NCBI GenBank assembly: GCA_965112155.1
Contig: OZ218108.1
DNA length: 64,000 nt
Source: Podarcis liolepis
Taxonomy: Eukaryota
Reading direction: 5' to 3' (one strand)
Within the stretch, counting starts at the first letter, position 1. Every line of letters begins with the position of its first letter. Below, piece after piece: positions 1,760 through 64,000 of the stretch. A program made the translations under genes and the position numbers. The notes under the pieces were generated by a model. It had not been told where the DNA came from. It saw only the letters and a list, made by a program, of their open reading frames with translations, and did not search any database.

Positions 1760-2683
1760 ATTGCAATTGCCAAATAAATGCTCATAAGGGGGGTCTACTT
1801 ATACAAACAGCATATCCTTGGACAAAAGTATTTGCATGAATTGCGGCTCTTTGTCCCTTATTTGGGGGAAGGGAAAGAATCAGTACAAATCTTATTATTA
1901 GGAAAGAAGAGCTGCAATGTCATTAAATTCCTTCCACTGATGTTGCATGACTCATACAACTACCGCATGAGTAGTTATTTCCATGCCATCATTGCCTATC
2001 CCAGTTCTATGTTTCTAGAAAATTACTTAAGAAGTAACTATAATGTTTCATATTTAGAAAGAGAGAAACACAATGGAAAATATAATATAAATGCACATAA
2101 CATATTGTTACTAGTCAACAAGGCATTCAAGCTGAAAAATACAGAGGGCATAACTACCCTCACAGGAGAGTGTGTAATAAAGCCAGCTGCACAGTAAGAA
2201 AAACAAAGTCAAATAATTGAATTTACCATGTTCAAGTTGGATTACTCAGTTTAGAAAAATGTAACAAATAATTCCAGCTCAGGTTTTCTGTTTATATACC
2301 AAAAATAAAACTTCTGATGCTAAATTAGTCTTTTCTTTTAGAAATAAAGTATGAAATACAATAATGCATCAAATAAATCTGTCACATAATACATAGCACT
2401 AAACTGTACAGCAGACAACATACACATGAAACAAAACTTACTAAACCTTTGCCACAAATGGGAAGGATAATGTGAACATTGCTTCAGTGATTACTGACTC
2501 TTATGTTGAACAAAATGAATTTTTCATCGGAACATCTGATGTAAGAAAGGAACGTGATGTACAACTTCAATTTTATCTTTAAAAATCATTTGATGCTCTC
2601 TTCCAATTTTGCTAATGTACATAGTAGTTTATAGTATTGGACATGGTAACATTTTAAAATAAAAAGACACAACCCTAACCCAC

Positions 2684-3001
2684 CTCCTGTACGTTCTTTT
2701 TCCCAGTTCCCACTGCCAGGTTTAGGTGGCTGCAAAGCAAGGTGCCTGTTCTCTGGTGGCCTCAGGGTGGATTCTAATCTGTGGAATTTGTGGATTCTGT
2801 CTCTGACAAGAATGGCATTGGCCCTTTCATCTTTATTGGAAAACTCTCTGGCATCAGGCCAACCAAGATCCTTCTTCTGGACTACATTAGCAATCTCTGC
2901 TACAAGATCTGATTCTGCCTTTTCTGTAGGGTTATACTTGTGCACATGAACAACATCTTCCCTTTCTCCTAGCAGCTTGGAAATGAGTGAATAGAAATCA
3001 C
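2684..3001 (-). CDS. PAM: PAM 'exon A' (alternatively spliced PHM-PAL linker, phase 1-1, 106 codons) with Lys-Lys endoproteolytic site
   Basis: Long CT-rich tract then gtgcag|GT GAT TTC...GGA G|gtgggt, 318 nt; DFYSLISKLLGEREDVVHVHKYNPTEK...VQKKDLG...NAILVRDRIHKFHRLESTLRP. Confidence 0.96.
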
Positions 3002-6000
3002 CTGCACAGAGAAAAAGAGAGAGAAAGAGAAAAAAACAACAGGTAAGAGAAAGAGACAGAGGAGGCGGACAGACTGCAAGATTTTGTTGTGAGCTTGACA
3101 AAGAGAAGAAATAGGAAGTTATTCCTAAAAGCCAACTTGGTTCAAAACTTCTGGCTGCTCAGGAACTCTTGACATAAATCACAGGCTGTTGCAGTCCTTA
3201 AATTTACACAACAATGCCTTTTTTTGACAAGGCATTTCAGAACCCAGGCAAATGAGGCCCCTTGCCTCTGGAAGGCTGGCCATGGGGGGGAAAGCATAAC
3301 TTTAGGAAGGATTATTTTAGCATTATTTAGCATCGGAACACTGGTGTACTTACCTCCTCTGAAATTTGCTACTAATAGCCTTTACAGGAAGCAGAAATTC
3401 AGAAGTGAAACCAGTTTGAAAGGAAATATATTCAGTTTTTCACTAGATTCTACAGAATGTTAATACAATCTGGAAGTGAACCAGTTGCAATTGTGGTTGT
3501 GTGTTTTCCCCTACTGTATGCTTTTTGGAACTGCATTAGCCAGGAAATGGAGGAAAAATTACAGATTGGTAAATTCTCCCACAGAAATGTTTGATAGATT
3601 ATCAAACTGACATATCTTTTTTTATATCTTTAGTTATATCAGATGCCTAACATTCTGGTTTATACATTATCTGTGTTATTGAAAGTTCCATACCTAGCCA
3701 ATATGCTTCCCCCCCCCCCAACCAGTGTTGTTAGCTAGATTGTCTGTGCTAGAAAATTGCATCATGTTTATATGAAGACTGCCAGGAAGGATTCCTCCCC
3801 GCCCCCATTTCCCATGTTGCCTGGTTTCACTTGAGTCTGTTTCCTGTGTGTTGAATATGAATATTGTGGGGTTTTTTAAATAAAAAAGTCAGAAGAACGA
3901 CAACTTTGTTAATTCAACTATTTCAGAAATGATAAGCATATCAAACATATTCAGAATATGCATCCAGAATTAAGGAAAGAATAGCTAATATGCACCTACT
4001 GTGATGGAAGCACAAGGTTTGCTAGATCTAGGTCCTTTTATCCCATTTGAGTACAATCGGAACTAAAGAAGATACAGTAGAATACTTCACTTGAGCACTC
4101 CAGATGTGCACCACACACTCTTCCATTTGCAATCTGAAGATTACTGTTATCAAAGCAAGGCAGCTTACAACTGTTGAAGCACACTGGAGTATATGACATA
4201 TAAATAAAATAAGAAAGCAAGGTCTGGTAGAAGCCTGAAAGAAGAAAATTCAAAAGAAAGGAGGAAAGGGAGGTATTCATTCACTCATTACACATCACTT
4301 AAAACTAGCTGGGTCGATTTGAACGGGATCCAATTTGTTGCTGATGTAAACGCACTTGCTTACAAAGCAGCAGCAACAAGCTCTTCGCCGTCTGCAGGTT
4401 TTATGTGCGGCCAGCGTCAGCGCAAGCTATCAGGAACATATTGTTCTACTCAACAATTTTGTTAAGAGCCAGCAATTGTCGGCAGCTGGACATGGACATG
4501 TGTTCAGTTGTGCTACATCTTATTCTAATTTGCATCTTGCCACCAAGAGCCAAAACTGCAAGGCACATCTGCAGTGGCAGCCTGAGGGAGGGAGCCCTGC
4601 CCTACAAGGGGCTGGTAGCCATTTCCAGACCAGATAATTTCTTCTTATCGAGTCCCTGCAGAGCAGAGACTCAGAAGGCAAGTGGCAGCTTGAACACCTA
4701 AAGCAGGCTTCCTCAACCTCGGCCCTCCAGATGTTTTGAGACTACAATTCCCATCACCCCTGACCACTGGTCCTGCTAGCTAGGGATCATGGGAGTTATA
4801 GGCCAAAAACATCTGGAGGGCCGAGGTTGAGGAAGCCTGACCTAAAGCAACCTTCCTAATCTGGTGCCCTTCAGCTGTGTTGGACTACAACTTCCATCAT
4901 TCTTGACTACTGACTATGCTGGCTGGGGCTGATGGGAATTGTAGTCCAAAACCAACAGGAAGGCATCAAGTTGGGAAAGGCTGATCTAAGGACTAAGGGA
5001 GACTTGCATTTGCTTCCTCCAGTGCCTCTTGTGTCAGCAACCATGAGCCGGAAACAACAAGAGACATCAGAAGAAGCATCCTGGGTGAGGAAGCAATTGC
5101 TTCCTTGAAGATCTGCTGTGGCTCAGTGCTGCTGCAGCAGCTGGAATATCCAGTGTTGAGAAGGGGGACTTGTACACATCTGTGCCTGTTCCTAACAACT
5201 CTTCTCTGTTCTGTTGTATATTAAAGATAACCTAAATCACCTTGAGCTCTTCGGTTAGCAGGAGGAATATAAATACTTCAAATGATCTATTCAACCTCTG
5301 CACTGGAGGAAAGGGCTTAGTCATTTATCACTTTATGCTTCTTTCTTTCTGTTTTGGATTGGTGGCTGCAAACAGTCCGTAAATAAATATCCCCGCCTTG
5401 GTGACACAACCATTAACTTCCGCAAATATGCTGGCTCACAAGTATTTCCATTAGACTGAGAGGATAATGAATTAAAAGGTTAAGGATTTCAATTATTTAG
5501 ACTTCTTTTAAAAATACATTTATGGAACCATGTCATAAAATCTTCTTAAAAGTTTCACATTAAAGCAATAATAAACGTAAATGGTAAGCTAAGGCTTCAG
5601 GACTCTCACGGAAAATGCAATTTTAAGAACTCAGCAAGGGGGGAAATTAAGTCTTTTCAAAATGACCCTAAGAGAGTCTGTCATGTTTATAAACAGTCCT
5701 GGCTCAACGGTTCCAGCTAAATTTCCAATTTCAGCCTTTGGAAGGGGAATGTCCCCAGTGAAATCCCCTGTCAGAAAATAATTATCAGAGTTAATAGGGC
5801 CAATTTTGGTGAAATGAACAAAGCAAATTGGAGCTGAACATAATGTGTTAAGCCATCCCCACTAACACGCTTGATAAAACATCCTTAATGTTGCTTTCCT
5901 TCAACCACATACTACTGCATTTATGACCAATTCTTATCAGATGCTTTCTACTGTTACAAAAACCACAGCACAACCACCGTCGCCATCGTCCCAGCTGCAT

Positions 6001-9400: not shown

Positions 9401-12400
9401 GGGCGGCTAACAACAATAAAACAGTATAAAACAGTATAACATAAACAACACTCTAAAATCATTCATTGTAAAATTAATTAATTCAGGCCACTGGCAACCA
9501 TTGGGCCAGAGCTCCGCGAAGATTGCCGAGGGAGGGAGTCAGGCTGTGCCCTGGCCAAAGGCCTGGCGGAACAACTCTGTCTTGCAGGCCCTGCGGAAAG
9601 ATGTCAAGTCCCGCAGGGCCCTGGTCTCTTGTGACAGAGTGTTCCACCAGATCGGAGCCACAGCCGAAAAAGCCCTGGCTCTAGTTGAGGCCAGCCTAAC
9701 TTCTCTGTGGCCTGGGACCTTCAAGATGTTTTTATTTGAAGACCGTAAGTTTCTCTGTGGGGCATACCAGGAGAGGCGGTCCCGTAGGTACGAGGGTCCT
9801 AGGCCGTATAGGGCTTTAAAGGTTAAAACCAGCACCTTAAATCTGATCCTGTACTCCACCGGGAGCCAGTGCAGCTGGTGTAGCACCGGATGAATGTGAT
9901 CTCGCAGCGAAGACCCCATAAGGAGTCTCGCCGCGGCATTCTGCACCCGCTGGAGTTTCTGGGTCAGTCTCAAGGGCAGCCCCACGTAGAGCGAGTTACA
10001 ATAATCCAATCTGGAGGTGACCGTCGCGTGGATCACAGTGGCCAGGTCAGGGCGAGAGAGGTAAGGGGCCAACTGCTTAGCTTGGCGGAGATGGAAAAAT
10101 GCCGCCTTTGTTATAGCTGCAATCTGCGCCTCCATGGAAAGGGAGGCGTCGAAGATTACACCCAAACTCTTAACAGACGGTGCTGGCACTAATTGCGCCC
10201 CCGCAAGAGATGGGAGTTGCCCCCCCAATCCCATATCGCCCCGCCCTAGCCACAGGACCTCTGTCTTCGAAGGATTTAGCTTCAACCGGCTCCCACGTAA
10301 CCATCCAGCCACAGCTTCCAAACATCTGGTCAGTGTGTCTGGGGCCGAGTCAGGATGGCCATCCATCAACAGATAGAGTTGGGTGTCATCGGCATACTGA
10401 TGGCAACCCAGCCCAAAACTCCGGACAAGCTGGGCGAGGGGGCGCATAAAGATGTTGAAAAGCATCGGGGAGAGTATCGCACCCTGAGGTACTCCACACA
10501 CCAAGGAGTGGCGCGATGACAATTCCCCCCCAAGCGCCACCCTCTGTCCCCGACCAGAGAGAAACGAGCGCAGCCATTGAAGGACTGTGCCCTGGATCCC
10601 CACGTCGGCAAGGCGGTGGTCCAGAAGTTCGTGATCGACCATGTCGAAAGCTGCTGATAGATCTAGAAGAATCAGCAGCCCCGACCCGCCTCGATCCAGC
10701 TGTCTACGAAGATCATCTGTTAGGGCGACCAGAGCCGTCTCGGTCCCATGACCAGTGCGGAAGCCGGACTGGAATGGATCCAAAGCCGATGTTTCATCCA
10801 GAAACCCACCAAGCTGTTCGGCAACCGCTCTCTCAATCACCTTACCCAGGAACGGAAGATTCGAAACCGGGCGGTAATTGGATAGATCTAAAGGATCTAA
10901 TGATGTTTTCTTTAAGAGCGGGCGCACCACTGCCTCCTTCAGTTCCCCTGGGAATGTCCCCGTGCCAAGGGACAAATTGATGATATCCCCCAGGAGGGCC
11001 CGCACCTCGTCTGGACACGCTCTAATCAGCCAAGACGGGCACGGGTCGAGAGGACAGGTGGTGGGCTTTCCAGCTCGGAGGAGTCTGTCCACATCGGCTG
11101 GGGATATCCGGTCGAAGTGGTCCAATACTGGACCCGAGGACAGTCGAGGGGCCTCCAGTTCCTTTATTGTATCCAAATTGGCAGGGAGGTCATGGCGGAG
11201 CGACAAGACCTTCTCCGCAAAAAAGCTCGCAAATGCCTCACAGCTAAGTGTCAAATTGTTATTTAAATTTGGCTGTCCCACAAGGGACGTTAAAGACCTG
11301 ATTATACTAAATCAGGTCAAACGGTCAAACAAAAATATTTGTGCTAACAGGATCACTTTGTTGGATACAACCTTTGGTAATGGTATCCTGAAAGGTTCAG
11401 CCATAACAACATTCCATTGGGCTTGTGAGACATAATAAAGTGTTTGTGTATGCATACAGTTACACACATTTTGTATATATACAGTATTAAAATGCAACAA
11501 AGAAGGACTAGTATCCATTCCACATCTCCTTACATGTTAATATTAAAGTACAGTGATAATTCTTTGCACATTAAGATGCTTCCTTCTGTACATGAGTGGT
11601 CAAACTGAAAATGGTCATTATGTTACAAAACTCCAACAAAATAAGTAATTAATATTTTTCATATATAATCAAGAATTAAAACTAAAAACCTCCCTTTTTT
11701 CTTCTTCCAGGAAGAACACTCTTTATTTATTGAAGACATTTATACACCATTTAATTAATCATCTGCATTTCTAAACCCTACTAACCAAATACAGCACACA
11801 AATAAATGACAATTGTATTAAGCAAATTTATCTGTGAACAAGAAAATCAAATGAGATTAAACTGTACTAATGAGTTTACCTGCAAGGTTAGGGACCAGTA
11901 ATTGACTATTTCCTCTTGAATGATTATGCAAGGAGCAGCAATGCAATAGTAGGGATGATTTAAATGCTAGTTGTTGAACAGCTACCACTATTTTGATAAA
12001 TCTCAATACAAAGAATGCAATTATCACTACTATTTGAAACATTTTTGAAATCTATTTTATGAAACCAGTATTATACGTACCCTGGTCTAAAACCTCCTCC
12101 TCATCTCTTTTTGGCTGTTGCATAACAGAAACTGTATCTCCACTTTTGGCTTCTGAAAAATAGAAAGGAGGAAATCTAATGATCTAAGAAAGAAATCGAA
12201 AAGCTAAAAGAGAAGTTAATAGAATTCAGATACCTGCACATATACATACTGGCTTTTGTAACTCAGATTAATTGCAAGGAGTCAGTACAATCCAACAATT
12301 TATTTTCTGATATAAATGCACAGCTTCATTTAACATAGTCTACTGCTCCAGCGGTTCCAAATTGAATAAAATATTGTGAGGGCCCAGGTAAGCCCTGCTC

Positions 12401-32756: not shown

Positions 32757-35700
32757 TTTGTGTGAATTAGGTAGAGTTGCATTTAAATGAGATTCAGTAA
32801 TCACAGTCATTCATCAAATGTGTTTTTATTTTTTCCACATAGGTAGAATGTCTAGGAGAACTACTATAGCAGCTTTTTCACACTTTTTCTTAGGAACATT
32901 CACAAAACACTAAAAAAGCAGCAGCACATTTTGGATCTCAATTTAACAGCAACAGACCTCCACAGATAAAATGGAAGGAGAAAACCTATCTGCGGTTTCA
33001 AGGAAATGTTGAAGATGCAACTTTCCTACTGTCGTTTACAATATGGAATGGAGTTATTCATTAATAAAATGCAGTTATTTCCTGGTCCCCACACTGCTCC
33101 AGTCATGTTTGGGTGAAGGAATCACATTAGATAAATAGATCAGCTGGAAAGCTCATCTCAGAGCTACTGTCCCATGGTACAGTAGACACGGACACAGTTA
33201 TGTTCACCATAAGTCTTTTATTCAAATGATTTTGGAAACTTTTGGGATCCAGCCACGTGGAAGAATCAACTTTGACACTTCAGTAGTGTATGAAACAGAC
33301 TTTAGTCTTCAAAATCAGAGAGATTAAAGCTGTAACCCTGATTCAATTTACCTGGGAGCAAGTCTCATTGATTTCAACAGGGCTTACTACTGAGTAGACA
33401 TGGCTAGGATTGTGCAAGTCTCTCCTTTCGTTTAGAGCAGATGCTTTCAAACTGTGAAGCAGACCAATCTTTGTATTCTGGGACTGAACAAAACGAATCT
33501 GGGTAATTTCATAGTAGTTTCCAGAGTGCTACCAGTAGTTGCTAGCATGGCTATAAATGTCTTGTGTCCACTGGGGCACAAGAGTACACTATGTGAGAAG
33601 GGAGAACTTGGTGTAGTAGAAAACACATGGAGTGTGAAGGCAAAAGATAGGGCAGGGAAAGAGGTGGGGTGACTGCAACTGGCAAAAACTAATAGTAATT
33701 GTGAAGCCCATGAATGTCACAGTTTTCTACTGTGAATTAACAATGCAGCCTGTTCACTCCTGCTTCACCTCCTCCTTTTCTGCAAGCAGGTAAAAAGAAA
33801 CCAGGATGTCTGAATTTAGCTTGGCTTCCCATGATGTGCAAACCTGGCATCCTGGTTTGTTGCTCCCAGCAAGCCAGGTTCATAAGCCAGGGTTAGAAGT
33901 TAGTTTGAGAGCACAAACCAGGATGCTAGGTTCATATGCCACCCTCCTAGATAAGTTGCTCACAGATGTGGGCTGTGCACACAAGGATTCTTCTTACAAT
34001 AAGCCAGGAATCCAAGCTTTCCATGATGTGCAAATCATACAACCTCTATGCTGCAAATAAACCTACATGGAGGAAATAAACCTGTGAAACGGACAAAGCA
34101 AAAATCAAGGCTATGCGTAAACTTACTGGTAAGCTGGTAAACTTACCTATCCAAGGTAAGATTACCAATTACAAAATAGTAGGATTGTGTAAGATTGTGT
34201 AAGAATATTTAAATGAGCAAATGGACTCCAGTATAAAATTCAATTAAACATGAACTATTTTTCAGTAATAGATGAACAGAACACCTTTCCGATTTCATAA
34301 CTCTTTGGGGCCAAGTTAGCATTTCTGGTTACTTGTTTTATAGACTGTCCTTTTCAAATATTAATGACCCAATCAAAATTTAAAAGGTATTTCAGAGCTG
34401 CTTCTGATTTATTAATAGAAACATCTTATTGATGAGTATGAAGACGTAGAAATTTGCAACTTGCTTCCCATTATGAAGCACTGAGGTTACAGTTTTTATT
34501 GGGGGCTACAACCTTTCATCAGTTTGAACAGTAAATCAATCAACTAAGTTTTAGTGAATGAATCCATAGGGGAAAGTTTAAAATGTGTGAGGACAAATCG
34601 CAATCAACATCAGCTTTACTATGGCTGTTTTTACTCTAGTGTACTACAGTAATATGCGTGGGGGTGGAAAGGAGGATCCAAATGGGCATCTCTCCTACCA
34701 AAGAGTGGTAGTTTTGCTTTTTTAATTATACATTTTCATGTTTCCTTCAATTTATCAGAGAAGTCACAGATCAACTAGGCCTGCTTTGATACATCTATTG
34801 ATTAAAATCTGCAACCCAAATGGCAGAAACGACAGAATGAACGTTTTTGAAAACACCATACCCACCATGCATTCATCAAGCCTTCTACACCCCCTCCCAA
34901 CCATACGTCATTCCCTTCTGACACAGGTAGCAAATGAAGCCAATGTCATGAAAACAACCCTGTGCTCCTTACCAGTAATCTTCATCTGAAGATGGATTGT
35001 TGCATCCAAAGAGCAGCATATGATGGACAGTGTCCATGCTAGCATGAGGTTTGAAGTCAACTGAAAGACAAGAGTGATACTTAAGTATGTCTTTTTCTCA
35101 GTACATTTTATGGTTCTATCTACATTAAGTTGCATGAGGACACTTATTTGCTCTCTTTCATTCACACAACAGCAAATGGAGATACACTGTGGGCTGCTGT
35201 GCTCATTATAACGACACAGCAGGAATAGAAATAAAAAAATCGCAGCAAGGATGAAGTGCTAATATCTCAAGTTGTGTTTCAGCTCTCTCAATTTTACTTC
35301 TAAAACAGGCAAATATGCCTTATTGGCCATGATACTTTAAAAAAAAATTGGTTTAAGTTTTTCTTATGCTTTTGTTACTGTCAGGGGTTCAGGAGCAGAG
35401 GCGAGGGCAAGGGAGGAAACAGAGAGCGAGGGGGAGGAGTCCGAAGAAAAGATGAGTGACGACGACGACCCGAGATCTCCGAGTCTGTCCAGTGAATCAG
35501 AAGATTCACAGAAAGGAGCGCCAGTGGCCAGAGCAAGGGGGGAGCTTAGGGGGACACCCCAGGAAGAAGGGTCCAGAGAGGGTTCAGAGGGCAGCAGTTG
35601 GAAATCGGGGCCAGCGTCACCAACAGAGCGCAGTGGGGAGGAAAGGCGCCAGGTATCGAGCTCTGGCAGCTCGCAGCAGGGGGGAGGGCATGAGTCAGGA

Positions 35701-38700
35701 GTGGCCACACCTCCATCGGAGAGCGAAGAAACGGTCAAGCGGAAAGTGGAAGGTTGGGCGCGCGCGCCAAGTTCAAATGCACAGGAAGGCGGCGCAGTAA
35801 GCAGCCCGGAAAGGGAGCCAGGTCCTAAAGCCCGACGCAAGGAGACAGGAGGGTCCGGGGGGTCAGCGTCAGAAGAGTCCAGGAAGGAAGAGACCACGGG
35901 GGGCAGAGGGACCCAGAGAAGAACGGTCAGGCGGAAAAGGTGGAGTAAGGCTAGGATATTAAGTTGGTGTACAAGGGGCGGAGACTCAGACGGAGCTTGA
36001 CCGGTCTAGCTTATAAGACGTAGAGCTGCACGCAGCAGCTTGGAAATGGAAACTGTAACTCAATAAAGACCTTTATAAAGTGAACGCTGGCTAGCGTGAT
36101 CCTCTGTGAGCTAGGATCTGGGAGCAGCTCTGACAGTTACACACTAATTAAGATGTACATTTTAAAGAAATCATTATTGTTTTTCATTGCGGGTAAAATA
36201 TACAACTATGATAACATACCAGAATACCCTACTCAAGTTCCTCCCCTCCAAACATTCACTGCTCCAAAGATGGCAGTACTCATGTGCAATTTTCATACAA
36301 AAGTAACTTTTCAGTAATGAGGCAAAAAGATCATTATATCAAAATAATATTTCAAAGGCATACTTCCAAATTCTAAATGGAAGTATATTGGGATTGAGGG
36401 GATTAACATCATTTTCTTTCTCTGTGTGTGTGTTTTATAAAAGCAAACAAAATTTTAATGAACTTATTGATTTTAGAAATACCATGTAAGGCTCTAAGTT
36501 TGTGTGCAAGCATTTCCTTATAGGCTATGTACCAAACATTTTGATAAGAAAAAGTAATTGAAATAACATGCATATCCTTCCATTGTTTGGGGATTGTGAA
36601 GTACGCCGCCATTAATAAATGTCCAATTAAGGCCTTTTTGGGGGACCTCCACTTACATCTTTATTCTGATATAAAAAGAAATTTAGGAGATAGAGTTGTG
36701 AGGTCCTGTCCAGGGACTCTTTAATAATTTTCTGGATCTTACTAAACAATGAAGTCCAAAAATGTAGATTAATATGTACATTTAACCAATAATTAAATAT
36801 AAAAGGGGAAGAAGAAATACACAAAGACATTTTAACAACTACTGTAAACAACATAACTCCAAGGAGTATGGTTTTTAGTTTCTACTGTAGATGAAACTCA
36901 AGTCTCACAGATGATCCTGCCACCAAAAAAAGAGAAGAAAGAAGAAGGGAGGAGTACATTTGAAGGTGGTAAACAAGAGTAGCTTTATCAATAGTTTTAC
37001 TCTTCAGTGACAGAGAGCATTTTAAGTTTCTTTAACTAGGAAGCAGCAGGGCAGATTCTTGAGGTGTATCATTTTAATTCTAATGGCACAGTAGGAGCAG
37101 GACCACAGGAGATCTGGTACTTTACAATTGCGCCCCCGGTTTTGCATTTTGAAGTTTAGCAGAACAAAGGAATATTCCAGGGGTGGGGGGAAGAAAAGAG
37201 ATGAATACATTAATAGGGTAGACTCAATTCTACAATGACAGCTGGAGTTTTACAATCCACTGAAGATGCTACAAAATCATTTTCCAATTGCTCTCACTAA
37301 CTGTGATGTTTACTGACAGCACTATAAGACCAAAAGACTTCAAAGGGTGGCAAAGAATGTTAAATATTAAAATGTATTTCATCCACAAGAGAAATTATAT
37401 ATTAGCATTATGTGCAAGGACAATGTTGAGCCACTCCTGTCATAAGCTCCCTCAACTTTAGATTAGTCCATTACAGGGGTACATTTGTATTCCCATTGCC
37501 TTTTAAAAGACCATCTTCCAGACAGTATAATTTGATGGACTATTTTAATGCAAGTCAGATTTTCGGGATGACTGGGGGGCTGCCAGTGGGGGTGGGGGGA
37601 TAGGCAAGGGAAGTCCCACAGTGCAAGTGAAACTCTCACACACCACTGGATATCACTCTATATGTATTTATTTATCAGTGTTCTACGTATCTCCCAATGT
37701 AGTGAAATATAATGTGACTAATTCAGGGTCCTCTGCTACAGTTTGTTTTTAAAAAACCCTCCCTTCATCCCACCCACCCCCCTTAAACTACAGCCAAACC
37801 TACTCACTATTCTAGAAACCACTATGCTGGTAAAATTTGTTGGAATTTCATATGCATTTTCTAGCTACTAGGAAAGGAAGCATTGTAAAATTGTGGAAGG
37901 GTGGGGTGGAGGAGCTGGAAATTTGGTTTCATATCTGTAAGGGTTCCAAGGGGTTGCTCGAGAATAAGCAGGTAAATACCCCCCTGCTCGGCTGTGAAGC
38001 CTTGCTTTTGATGCAAATAAACTTTATCTGTCCAGAGCGCCACTCTCCCGTGGCTGGCTCATTCACTGGCAGAATCTGTGAGTGGGCGGGGCTTAAACTT
38101 TCCCCAGCAAAGTAATTTCTTGACGCCCAGTCTGTCCTCCGAACCCTGCAGCTCCTCTCCACTGGAGGTGTGGTCACTCTCCCCCGCAGAGGAGGAGCTG
38201 CTTTCCACGAACTTTGGGGGCTCTCTGTAATCCATCCGGCTTTTCCTCTCTCCCTCCTGAACCGATGGCAGTTCCCTGACAATATCTTACAGAATAATTG
38301 AATTGTAGAGCTGTAGAGCTGGAAGGGATCCCAAGGGTCATCTAGTCCAACCCCCTGCAGTGCAGGACCCTCTACTAAAACATCCATGACAGATGGCCAT
38401 CCAACTCTGCTTAACAACTTCCAATGAAGGAGAGTCCACCACCTTCCGAGGGAGTCCATTCCACAAATGAACAGCTCTTACCATCAGAAAGTTCTTCCTG
38501 ATGTTTAGATGGAATCTCCTTTCTTGCAACTAAATGCTACAATGCTTTTTTGCTTTGCCATTAAGATTGGCAAATCTTAAGGCTCACAGTACATTAATAG
38601 TTTAGTTATTTGTACACAGGATAAAAATGGGACTCTCTCTCTCTCAGTGCAGTAGTAAAAAAGCTTGTATACTTCCATCGATAAGGCGAATTCTTTCCAA

Positions 38701-41700: not shown

Positions 41701-44700
41701 ATTTCTAGGCGCATGCCCACTACATTTTTCTGGCATCTCTTATTTTCTTTAATCCTTCAGTGCCTTACTATGGGAACTCAAACTGAACCTTTGATTTACA
41801 AAGCATAAATTCTAAAGGCTGCCTATGACCTAAATTATGCTCTTCAGAGCCCCCAAACCAGAACACAGTAATATAATTACTAAATATCACACCAAATAAA
41901 GATGTCCCCAAATCATGTCAGCTGAAAGTAGAGATGTCATGTCCTTTGAAAATTGCACTCTCCTTACCTTAACTCAGCCTTTTCCAACCTGGTGTCCTCC
42001 AGATGTTTTGGGACTACAAAGCCTATGATCTCTACCTAATGGCCATGCTGGCTGGGGCTCATGGGAGATGTAGTCCCCAAGTTCTAGGGGGCACCAGGGT
42101 GGGCAAGGCTGCCTTAAGCCAATGGCAATACGACAGTGATACAATGATAGTGGTTTCCTAATCGCATTTTCAACGCATATGGAAAAAGCCAAACCTTTAT
42201 CATTCATCAGCTACCTAATACACATACACACAGTTAAAATGTGTTAAGAGCTAACTAATCTCTTTGAAAACAAGTGACGATTTTCTAGGTTCTACCCTTT
42301 CATTGTAAATTTCCATTCTACTATTAACACTTACTAGTGAAGGTAACTGTTGGCAAGCAGAATGGAATAAAAAATGAACATTACGGAGTGAACACACTAA
42401 ACAGATGGTGCTTACTTCAGTGGCCTACTTACTTAAATTAAACATTGATATAGTGTTGTGGTAGGGCCTGTCATTTGCCTGTCATCTCATCCACGCCTCA
42501 ACATAAAGCAAGTATATTTTGCAAACAGGTAAGATCTTACTGTACCTAGCGCTTATTGTAAGTGCAAAGAGATTTACAGCCCGTACCAGCAGGTAAATAA
42601 ACAGCTTGTGCAATGGAGTGGAATTAAGTATCCAGCCACAGACAGAAAGCCAATACTTTACAAATGGGAGCGCTACAGCCCAGCTGCCAGAGGCATCTAC
42701 ATGAAGCTCCTTAAGTACTATTACTCACGAGTCTCTCCAGATACAGTTTGTTATCCCCACCTTAAGTGGTTCCCTCTAGTTTTGCTTCTGCATTAGACAT
42801 GATGAATGTATTACAGGAATTCTGATGGGGGGGGGAATTAAGCTACAGGGGAAGCAACACAAGCCTTTCACCAATTCTGTCCATGATTTTCCAACACTCA
42901 GGTGGTACTCACCTACGTAGGCTTCCTCCTCCACTGGTAAACGGACAGACATGCAAAGGTAGGTATCAGACTGGAATGACACAACAGGGGAAAATACATT
43001 AGGCATATTTCCCCCCAAAAAAGTCAAAATTTGCTAATTTCACAAACAGTTCACCTTCCATATATGTATACATTTCTTGCAACAGGTGACCTTGAAAACA
43101 GCTAAAATAACTTCTAGAGTAGAAGTATGCCTATATGATAAACTAATGATAAACTAGCTATAACATACTTTTTACTTCTATATTAGATCATATATTAGAT
43201 AATCAGTATTTCTAGAGGGCATGCATTTCTGGCTAGGATAAGAATTTACACAAAGCAAACCTACTATATTAATCAGAAAATGGCTAAAATAGGTAAGCTG
43301 GGTCCTCAATGCTCTTCTACATATAGTTCTTTGATGCCAGTAGCACATTGGTGAGTCAGCTACTGAGGAATTAATACACACACTCAACAACAGCTTCCAG
43401 GCTAAGAGACAAATGTACAGCCTGCAGTAGTCATTTTGTGCTATAGCTGTACTCTGGGGCTATTGCAATGGAACACAGGAACTGTATCCTCTAGTGGCAA
43501 GCAAATCAAGGATACTATACAGCACATTCTGATTTTATTGTGTGGGCTGCCGGGGACAGGGGGCAGGAGAGAAGTACATTAAAAGTGAGTAATTAACAAG
43601 GAAGTTCCTCGTGTAAGCATTTCCCTGGAAATGAAAGGGAGCAAGACAAAGCCATGCTGGATTTTGCCCCAAATGCACTTCTAAGCCCTTGCTAAATCTC
43701 TCTACAGATATGCACTTGGATAATACCAGGGGGCCGGGGGGAATAATCAAATCAATATTACTTCAAGGTAGAGGACATATTCCCAAGTCACAGATCCTCC
43801 CCATACCATACCCTTGTTCTCATACAATATTAAACATAATTAAGTAGTTCACTCTGGGTATAGAGAATACCAAGAATGGAAATCCATAACTGTGTCTGTA
43901 TGCTCCTCACTTCAATTAACATTAATGAAAGTTAATCAAGAGAATGTTTCCCTTAGAAGTAAGCAATGGAAAGTCGGCTGAGACACACATTTGTAATCGT
44001 CTTCAGCGCAAATTGGAACATGACAACCCTGTACAGACATCAGTTACTTCACAAGTCCCAGCAGTCGCACAATGCCGTGAAATGCAAGATGTGTAGGGCC
44101 AGCATGACCCACGTTTTACAAGTGCCTGTGCTAATTTCGTGGCTGCAAGTTGCTACTGTTTCAAAACCCAAAGCTTTTTAAGAGACAATGGAGCTGAAGT
44201 CCACAATTCAAATGCCTTTTTTTAAAGACACAAAATAATTGAATTCCAGCCATATGTATTTGCCCTTCCAAATTTTTGCAGAAATATTAAACATGAAGCA
44301 AGACAACTGTTTGTGCAGGTCATCCTATATACAATACAAGGCATTTGGAACTGAGGAACTATATATGTGAAAGAGAATAAATCAGAGAAAATTTTCCCTT
44401 AAACCTTTGGCCCTCCAGATGTTGCTAAACTATAACTCCCTTCATCTGTGCTTGCTAAGGCTGGTGGGAGTTGTAGCTCAGCAACATGTGGAGGGCCAAA
44501 GGATCTCAATGCCTCCCCAAAATGAAGTTCTTATTTGTTCTGCAGGTTCCAGTTCTATATTCTGGTACTGTATTACCACAGCAAGCTTATCTTCTACATA
44601 TGTTACAACTTTGCCTCTTTCCGTTGCACCATAATGTCAAGTCCCATTCAACTCCCCATGGACTGCAAGAATTAATAAAGTTTTGAACTGGAAAATGTGC

Positions 44701-53256: not shown

Positions 53257-54081
53257 CCGTATTTTCCATCCCAAAGGACGCTCCGCCCCATAGGACGCAC
53301 CTAGTTTTTTGGGGGGGAAATAAAGGAATTTCCCCCCTTTATTTCCCCCCCAAAACCAGGTCGGGGAAACCAAACCAGGTTGAGGAACAGCGGTATGGCG
53401 GCGCTGCGTCTCCTTGCTGTCCCCCGAGCTTGTGGAGCTGGCCAATGTCTGTCCGGCGGGCGGGGCACTCTGCTTCAGGGCGCCCCTCGCGCTGGGCGGC
53501 AGGCTGCTATCCGCAGCGTGGGGAGCCCTGCGGGGAACTCCCCAGGGCTCCAACACGCTGCGGGTGTCTGTCCAGCGGGCGGGGCGCTCTGCTTCAGGGC
53601 GCCCCTTGCACCGGGTGGCAAGCTGCTATCCGCAGCATGGGGAGCCCTGCGGGGAACTCCCGCAGGACTCCAACACGCTGCAGATGTCTGCCCGGCGCGA
53701 GGGGCGCTCTGCTTCAGGGCGCCCTTCGCGCTGGGCGGCAGGCTGCTATCCGCAGCGTGGGGAGCCCTGCGGGAACTCCCGCAGGGCTGCCTAGGCTGCG
53801 GGTGTATTCCTGAAGCGCCGGGCACTCTGCTTTCAGCGCGCCTGGCGCTCCAGGAAGCAGGCTGCTATCCGCAGCCTAGACAGCCCTGCAGGAACTCCCG
53901 CAGGGCTGCCTAGGCTGCGGGTGTGTTCCTGAAGCCTGGATAGCGAGAGGGGTCGGTGCGCACCGACCCCTCTCACTCTCCAAGCTTCAGCGAAATCCTG
54001 CATTCGCCCCATAGGACGCACCCAGATTTCCCCTTCATTTTTGGAGGGGGAAAAGTGCGTCCTATAGGGCGAAAAATACGG
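53257..54081. mobile_element. Non-autonomous Tc1/mariner-superfamily (pogo/Tc2-like) element carrying a GC-rich minisatellite
   Basis: TA|CCGTATTTT...AAAAATACGG|TA termini; repeated subterminal CCCCATAGGACGCAC motif. Confidence 0.85.
53446..53935. repeat. CpG-rich tandem repeat, 119-120 bp unit, about 4 copies
   Basis: Units start at 53446, 53565 and 53685, with a divergent copy at about 53803. Confidence 0.9.
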
Positions 54082-62034: not shown

Positions 62035-62404
62035 TATTTACTTATTTCTTACATCTCCATCCCACTTTTTTCTCCAAGGAGCTCAATGTGATGTACATGG
62101 TTCTTACCCTCCTCATTTAACCCCCACAACAACCCTATATGATAGGTTAGGATGAGAGGCAACAACCAGCCCAAGGTCACCCAGTGAGTTTCATGGTCCA
62201 GTGGGGATTTGAACCCTGGTCTCCCAGCTCCTAGTCCCACACTCTAAGCCAGCCTTTCTCAACCTTGTGTCCCTGAATTTTGTTGGACTACAACTCCCAT
62301 CATTCCAGCCACTGGCCCTGCCAGCTAGGAATGACGAGAGTTGTAGTCCAACAACATCTGGGGACCCAAGGCTGAGAAAGGCTGCTGTAACCACACTGGC
62401 TCTC
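62035..62404 (-). mobile_element. Older MIR/Squam3-like SINE interrupted by a MITE
   Basis: Minus strand GGGTTCAAATCCCC box B and TGGGTGACCTTGGGC core; sequence resumes after the MITE at 62385. Confidence 0.75.
62250..62384. mobile_element. hAT-type MITE nested in a SINE
   Basis: CAGCCTTTCTCA...TGAGAAAGGCTG; TSD CTCTAAGC/CTGTAACC. Confidence 0.85.
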
Positions 62405-63120: not shown

Positions 63121-63155
63121 ATATTCTATTTCCAACAGTTTCTAACACTTTAAAG

Positions 63156-63291
63156 CAGGCATGGCCAAACTTGGCCCTCCAGCTGTTTTGGGACTACAAT
63201 TCTCATCATCCCTAGCTAACAGGACCAGAGGTCAGGGATGATGGGAACTGTAGTCGCAAAACAGCTGGAAGGCCAAGTTTGGCCATGCCTG
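63156..63291. mobile_element. hAT-type MITE
   Basis: TIR CAGGCATGGCCAAACTTGGCC; same palindromic core as the other copies. Confidence 0.87.
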
Positions 63292-64000
63292 CATAAAGTC
63301 TTAATGCCATATTTTACATTAGGGGCCTTTCTAATGTTTTCAGATGCATTGCACTTCCTAACCTTGAACATGAAAAGTGGCCTCTGTAGCTGCAATCCTA
63401 CACATACTTCCTTGAGGGTGAGAGGCCCCTTTGGGCCTTTACTCCTGGGTAGACATGAACAGGATTGCCAGAGATGACCTGCACTTTCCAAGTGTATTAC
63501 TCAGCAGTTTATACTCTTGTACATTTTTACTGTACAACTTGCCTTGCTCAGCATACCTAGCCCTTTGCATGGCTGTTTCATTCTGCATTTTAGGTTGCTG
63601 ATGACATTACTGTATTCTGCCCATGATTTCCTTTGCAGAAAGCAATCTTCTACCACCACCTAGCACTTATTACTCTCGTTTAAGGAATAATTTATTCTCT
63701 TACAGCTATTGCAATGCCTTAAGGTCATTGACTGCAAGCTTGGAACATATTGATGATCACTTCCATGCCATACAGAGATGTTATAGATACGTAATGGCAG
63801 GATTTTGATGGAATATTCCATAGTAAAAAGACATAACAAAATATAATCCTGAGAACTGTGACTTTTCAGCACCTTGATTAAATTAACTGCATAGTTTTAT
63901 TACACCACGGGGCCAGTACCTCTGCTCTTCCATAACATAAATCCGTGGATGCAATAAAGGGAGGCTTATTGAGATTACAAGGTGTCCTTGAAGATAATGC

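Follow-up and report, generated by a model that had tools for sequence, protein, structure and literature searches.

The DNA analyzed here is a stretch of 64,000 nucleotides from the lizard Podarcis liolepis (NCBI GenBank assembly GCA_965112155.1, contig OZ218108.1), referred to as the window. It contains two solo long terminal repeats (LTRs), both likely recombination leftovers, each from one of two sister families of a chromoviral Gypsy element that is self-priming and of the Tf1/sushi type. LTR-A (35379..36135, + strand; 757 bp) has TG..CA ends and was assigned from its sequence and its genome copies to a young chromoviral Gypsy family. Direct reading revealed a 5-bp target duplication, GTTAC, to its left (35374-35378) and right (36136-36140). 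LTR-B (37936..38281, - strand; 346 bp) is flanked by the 5-bp duplication ATATC (37931-37935 and 38282-38286). It belongs to an older sister family of A with an LTR of 456 bp, compared to which it has lost 108 bp, in frame, at the point between 38135 and 38134 (- strand). The unique 3' region (U3) of each LTR contains an open frame. In LTR-A the frame (35380..36000, +) has 206 sense codons from base 2 followed by a TGA at 35998-36000, and in LTR-B (38059..38280, -) it has 73 sense codons with the TGA ending at 38059. As set out below, the former most probably represents the last ~206 codons of Pol, i.e., of the integrase tail, and the latter a C-terminal Pol tail shortened by deletion.

A first look at the genome gave 3269 candidates for LTR-A and 1166 for LTR-B. 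The LTR-A family is very young, with all 40 scored copies being 99-100% identical. The window copies of both LTRs were found to be slightly damaged relative to their families. The LTR-A frame ends three codons earlier than that of its family; 28 of the 29 other fetched copies read 209 codons, while the remaining one carries a frameshift. The LTR-B family frame is 109 codons long and was shortened in the window copy by its 108 missing in-frame bases. Openness of a single copy was suggestive for LTR-A, where 54 of 5000 dinucleotide shuffles left the frame fully open. For LTR-B, 500 of 5000 shuffles were fully open, and the openness of this frame is therefore weak evidence and not significant alone.

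An earlier note on this DNA had proposed that the two LTRs encode an accessory protein of the nef or sag kind, conserved at the protein level and with its C-terminus in the 3' LTR. On re-reading, both solo LTRs and both frames are real (TG..CA ends, 5-bp duplications, open frames), and the B peptide and the terminal motifs RWSKARILSW (LTR-A; 35938..35967, +) and RLGVKKLLCW (LTR-B; 38104..38133, -) had been quoted exactly. The little nucleotide similarity noted between A and B also held, with blastn giving weak word matches of 8-13 bases in the end part of the output, which was the part examined. Two supposedly shared protein features did not survive. The common V-R start is dictated by the TGTCAG end of the LTR, and the DS following the motif is found at W+6/7 in A versus W+10/11 in B. 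Since the RNA start, described below, sits at a fixed distance from W, the two DS words are not homologous.

In full-length relatives the order of pol is PR (protease)-RT (reverse transcriptase)-RNaseH (RH)-integrase (IN)-SH3-chromodomain-acidic tail, and the frame then continues through the polypurine tract (PPT) and the entire 3' U3 to terminate just beyond the RNA start. The junctions between PPT and LTR were sampled in genome order at 30 A-type loci, at 30 loci of sister family C (28 places, one of them being a solo LTR of another family) and at five true-B junctions. There are 1994 A-type junctions in the genome. Of the 30 A-type loci, 29 had a recognizable chromodomain and 26 had it in register with U3; the frame was free of stops into U3 in 24 and up to the motif in 22. 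The LTR-B start pattern occurs at 898 places in the genome, mostly belonging to family C among the matches listed. Chromodomain, acidic tail, PPT and 100 U3 codons formed one stop-free frame at 25 of the 30 C-type loci. All five true-B junctions found had the chromodomain and the acidic tail in the U3 register, with stops resulting from decay, and 20 further loci intermediate between B and C showed identical anatomy, many with breaks. Of 19 full-element stretches, 15 had an open reading frame (ORF) of 836-1569 codons that reached the motif within the 3' LTR, and PR, RT, RNaseH, integrase, SH3 and chromo domains were all found by Pfam in three such ORFs. The same tail is carried by UniRef models from Podarcis muralis named "Gypsy retrotransposon integrase-like protein 1" (three matches in one search, nine in another). 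Pol thus reads through the PPT into U3 in most of the A and C junctions sampled. The frame has its origin upstream of the PPT and its C-terminus inside the 3' LTR, where the ORFs of full elements end at the motif. With unbroken continuity from pol at 24 of 30 A loci and at 25 of 30 C loci, and the U3 register kept in all true-B junctions, it is an in-frame continuation of pol and not the separate ORF of a nef- or sag-like protein.

Two frameshifted copies from tandem arrays on contig C20 had suggested that an ATG in the PPT opens a separate ORF, which the sampling of junctions in genome order overturned. Tandem LTR-internal-LTR arrays with a period of 5805 bp are present on this contig, e.g., at 8.90-8.91 Mb and 9.04 Mb. 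The contig (40 Mb) holds many of the full copies and many of the older ones, a pattern that a W chromosome might show.

We determined the ratio of non-synonymous to synonymous substitution rates (dN/dS) from real copies only, using pairs between subfamilies. For U3 it was 0.22-0.32 in A (10 of 10 pairs), 0.11-0.40 in C (10 of 10 pairs) and 0.12-0.53 in 10 B-C pairs, and for the region of 32 codons around the motif 0.00-0.18 in C and 0.06-0.75 in A. Mutations private to the subfamily of the window copy gave 1.10 (6 synonymous, 21 non-synonymous). Substitutions were also counted by codon position in alignments made from DNA only, which cannot favour any frame. An excess at third positions was found in all eight pairs (e.g., 19/12/34 and 3/2/16). 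The U3 indels measured 3, 3, 3, 3 and 21 bases and net 75 and 81 bases, and hence kept the frame. Conservation at the protein level, as the earlier note had suggested, is borne out by these three lines of evidence. Constraint acting on the DNA itself would not account for them, because dS in U3 is no lower than in the RT/integrase core of pol but as high.

Along the whole of pol, dN/dS was 0.00-0.13 for RT, RNaseH and integrase, 0.12-0.41 for the tail preceding the LTR and 0.17-0.70 for the 5' part of U3. The C motif had a value of 0-0.18 compared to 0.08-0.24 for the chromodomain. U3 therefore evolves in the manner of the protein's disordered part, and the C motif in that of a folded domain. 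The Leu codons of the terminal motif exchange among TTA, CTA, CTT and CTC.

The full A element is of the Ty3/Gypsy class, with gag followed by pol (PR-RT-RNaseH-integrase-SH3) in the -1 frame relative to gag over a G GGA AAC word. It has the domain order PR-RT-RH-IN of chromoviruses and a chromodomain at the integrase C-terminus. This chromodomain (PF00385) was detected with an E of 1.5e-11 in C; the A matches were weak (0.12 and 0.025, below the cut-off) yet alignable. As in the Tf1/sushi group, the PBS (primer-binding site) complements the 5' end of the element's own RNA, which was evident both from co-variation of the complement and from read ends. The bases 3' of the 5' LTR complement a 9-11-mer of the LTR, this pair co-varies over at least eight sequence variants, and the complementarity predicts the RNA start. 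In LTR-A the RNA 5' end (start of the repeat region, R) and an 11-nt self-primer, complementary to the PBS after 5' LTRs, are located at 35988..35998 (+). A putative RNA start and self-primer for LTR-B (38073..38083, -) was placed by analogy with C and B/C-intermediate elements, the elements found including no 5' LTR-PBS of true family B.

Single-cell RNA reads, used raw and covering one sample of a related species with about 12% of two runs, also gave the RNA start. Adapter-joined reads ended exactly at the predicted position, which is the equivalent base of a relative (46 and 33 reads); we take the adapter to be the template-switch adapter. At LTR base 27, a further site joined to the adapter (26 and 27 reads) is likely a strand-invasion artefact, because the LTR resembles the adapter end there. 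Tabulation of sites where many molecules begin or end gave none in the same reads, and the start is given by loose read ends. It applies to A, while the start in family C is the one predicted from the self-primer.

In A and C, and by analogy in B, the codon for the motif Trp ends 20 nt before the RNA start. This fixed distance ties the motifs of A and B/C together as homologues despite a weak similarity of their profiles. In LTR-A the motif codons overlap a TATA-like word (35957-35963, +) at -31 from the RNA start, and an AATAAA further downstream (36062..36067, +) is a putative poly(A) signal. About 45 bases in this way combine the protein code with the TATA position, the RNA start and the self-primer. 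We considered whether the motif is just a TATA box and dropped this idea, since C has no TATA-like word at the motif position and still keeps LLCW through synonymous swaps. The constraint is therefore at least partly on the protein. Because transcription from a solo LTR starts downstream of the frame, solo copies cannot express it from their own promoter. The terminal motif is somewhat like the YxxxxL-phi pattern of eIF4E-binding proteins, a likeness that we regard as putative.

We estimate at about 0.88 the probability that the LTR frames are the 3' end of pol of a self-priming Tf1/sushi-type chromovirus held under purifying selection, likely encoding a long disordered integrase tail with a motif likely involved in nuclear import or chromatin tethering. 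The pol frame runs from integrase through the chromodomain, the PPT and the whole of U3, and would be translated from full-length genomic RNA after the gag-pol -1 frameshift. The product would be an integrase with a disordered tail of 235-430 residues, of which the basic motif ending in L-[CS]-W likely serves nuclear import or chromatin tethering, as judged from the analogy with plant CRM group A discussed below. Of the proposal in the earlier note, the coding nature of the frame, its conservation as protein, its origin upstream of the PPT and its end in the 3' LTR stand, and the separate accessory protein and the V-R and DS motifs fall.

Several observations weigh against assigning the frames to such a Pol tail. 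The one B-B pair had a U3 dN/dS of 0.64, and the private-allele control was low in three smaller clusters (0.26, 0.08 and 0, with few events). With a transition-weighted site count, dN/dS reached 0.29-0.52 (A) and 0.33-0.90 (C) in the 5' U3 and 0.26-0.80 in the A motif, and part of the conservation of this motif, overlapping the TATA position, may be promoter-driven. The profile comparison between the A and B/C motifs was weak (probability 29.6%, E 5.7e-4). Just 3 of 9 PPT junctions were in frame in the window's own A subfamily; of the six broken ones, five belong to two tandem arrays of a single contig. An in-frame ATG within the PPT is present in each of the 36 A junction records whose U3 frame is intact, and the U3 frame of family A may for this reason be initiated separately. 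Finally, the most likely role of the tail, nuclear import or chromatin tethering, is argued from analogy, and its translation into protein from findings at the nucleic-acid level.

The in-frame ATG, together with a Met inside the A U3, would suit an accessory protein like that of nef or sag, made from a subgenomic or spliced RNA, or a tail cut off Pol by the protease and acting alone. Some young A copies keep U3 open though pol is out of frame, and the read depth over U3 is about 10x the internal depth, both of which would fit such a protein. We nevertheless find it improbable. GTG is the codon at the junction in 32 of 33 C records and in five of five B records, leaving one B/C record with an ATG, and Met is absent from 43 of 47 C U3 frames. 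The pol frame is continuous in most copies, and no splice joint from leader to a U3 acceptor was among those listed for the raw RNA reads, which come from the related species and have low internal depth. The U3 reads extend into mixed AT-rich flanks, as expected of solo LTRs within host transcripts. Nor do we favour the view that a T-poor U3 is open by chance and that a conserved TATA box or initiator was read as a protein motif. The A U3 contains 10% T, its antisense frame is open too, B was open in 10% of shuffles, and the motif occupies -32..-21, where A has the TATA-like word. However, dN/dS values of 0.1-0.4 alongside high dS and the codon-position test largely refute a compositional artefact, and the frame-keeping indels, the LLCW kept in C by synonymous swaps and the continuity with pol leave this view hardly any probability.

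Passive read-through concerns function alone and is compatible with the anatomy of a pol tail. The tail would be translated, and selection would remove only stops, frameshifts and drastic changes, without any binding role. Its low complexity, its variable length in U3 (97-221 codons) and a dN/dS of up to 0.5-0.9 in the 5' U3 agree with this, and Pfam assigned no family to either of the U3 peptides tested. In contrast, constraint on the C motif matches that on the chromodomain, and L-[CS]-W was kept over about 0.9 substitutions per site of integrase divergence. We therefore give passive read-through a real but minor chance. If the frames are a selected Pol tail, thousands of solo LTRs in the genome, as counted among the first-look candidates, carry pre-formed and selected coding sequence for an integrase tail. 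The Ty1 targeting domain is a short motif of the integrase tail that sets target choice, and because such motifs do so in other retroelements the conserved tail motifs are candidates for how vertebrate chromoviruses pick insertion sites.

HIV nef and MMTV sag are separate ORFs that overlap U3 and have their own mRNAs. The lizard frame resembles them in that protein coding in U3 overlaps the PPT and the promoter, and differs in being the end of pol. Among vertebrate elements it is most like the Tf1/sushi group (V-clade, e.g., sushi-ichi), with Gag and a -1 pol of PR-RT-RH-IN-SH3-chromodomain. The LTR ends TGT(C/T)A...ACA resemble the Sushi motif in PMC3601003, and a self-priming PBS is described for the Tf1/sushi group in PMC6317226 and PMC4600332. 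Unlike other Tf1/sushi elements, the lizard lineage has 235-430 residues after the chromodomain, acidic and then basic, with 97-221 codons in U3. The closest precedent is offered by the centromeric retrotransposons of plant CRM group A, in which the 3' LTR encodes a CR motif (CHDCR) for targeting (PMC3059260 and PMC3605345). Both lineages extend the integrase ORF into the 3' LTR, making the lizard element a vertebrate parallel to the plant arrangement. In CRM group A the CR motif replaces the chromodomain and the primer is tRNA-Met, whereas the lizard lineage keeps a chromodomain upstream of the PPT, is self-priming and extends the frame to the RNA start. The likeness is one of arrangement and is likely convergent. 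A description of the lizard tail was not found in the literature searched; Repbase and the paper of Butler et al. (2001) about Tf1/sushi elements of vertebrates were outside this search, and either may already note that pol extends into the LTR.

A search of the Atlas with the A-type U3 peptide gave no usable match. In a search of representative proteins (best 150 of 1193 matches), homologues of the tail occurred only among the top matches; these homologues were from Podarcis, three Logan records and one ENA record (P0014). The latter is a distant member that ends in LLCW and has an FxGF word. A, B/C and P0014 formed one integrase clade (support 100/99), with long-branch warnings for the outgroups. 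The lizard clade was monophyletic in the integrase tree, in which no named sushi reference was included and long branches meet. The other chromodomain matches had short basic tails (median 56 residues). A GG-x-V word was present in 27 of 85 short-tail chromodomain proteins, often with SPE[YF] and the end 7-20 residues further on; those with names were from catfish and cyprinids. Fish chromoviruses including P0039, P0059, P0032 and P0076 have a tail with an AT-hook-like RGRP, the GG-x-V word and a terminal SPE[YF], and probably contain a short read-through of pol into the LTR. The protein sequences alone suggest that a short LTR read-through goes far back among vertebrate chromoviruses and that the lizard lineage extended it greatly. 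A solo LTR of a further family (L071:1512 onward) is open for 87 codons and contains a WLCWG word.

Upstream of the PPT, and so outside the LTR and the window, the pol tail of B/C contains a helix-like W-x3-F, a linker rich in D/E/S/T and then FxGF. One or two FxGF/LxGF words in an acidic S/T-rich context were located at L084:1556-1669 (-), L081:1357-1470 (+) and in relatives. F-x-G-F was invariant in 12 of 12 aligned B/C copies, and the A tail has one FxGF in acidic context. TND-interacting motifs (TIM/IBM), which bind LEDGF/HRP2, consist of a helix, an acidic linker and FxGF, as described in PMC9987994. The lizard tail has this pattern (helix, acidic linker of 8-16 residues, FxGF), with nine residues between F and FxGF; the known TIMs belong to host proteins, while the lizard FxGF is in a retroelement tail. 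The resemblance to LEDGF-binding motifs is a lead only. A complex prediction for the FxGF peptide and the Podarcis LEDGF domain scored 0.26 compared to a mark of 0.34 and was uninformative either way. A tentative and rather doubtful extension is that the whole U3 belongs to a motif-studded integrase tail, in which FxGF words mimicking TIMs would tether to LEDGF/HRP2 and the basic L-[CS]-W motif would double as core-promoter sequence. Such a tail would reach, through short motifs, the host factor also employed by lentiviral integrases, and changes in it would explain differences in insertion sites between families, e.g., an enrichment of A at chromosome ends. On contig C1, 21 of 89 A-type and 1 of 42 C-type junctions lay no more than 1 Mb from either end (p 0.002), where the C list was without non-PPT rows, tandem arrays inflate A and a retention bias is possible.

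Elsewhere in the window, a LINE-like (long interspersed nuclear element) reverse-transcriptase frame of 590 codons is located at 9539-11311 (-; PF00078, E 1e-36). An open frame at 2586-3158 (-) resembles a host exon and received no name from Pfam or the Atlas. A GC-rich tandem repeat of ~119 bp with internal inverted arms occupies 53421-53990. Short elements resembling miniature inverted-repeat transposable elements, with long terminal inverted repeats, are found at 4704-4839, 44404-44502, 62250-62384 and 63150-63297.

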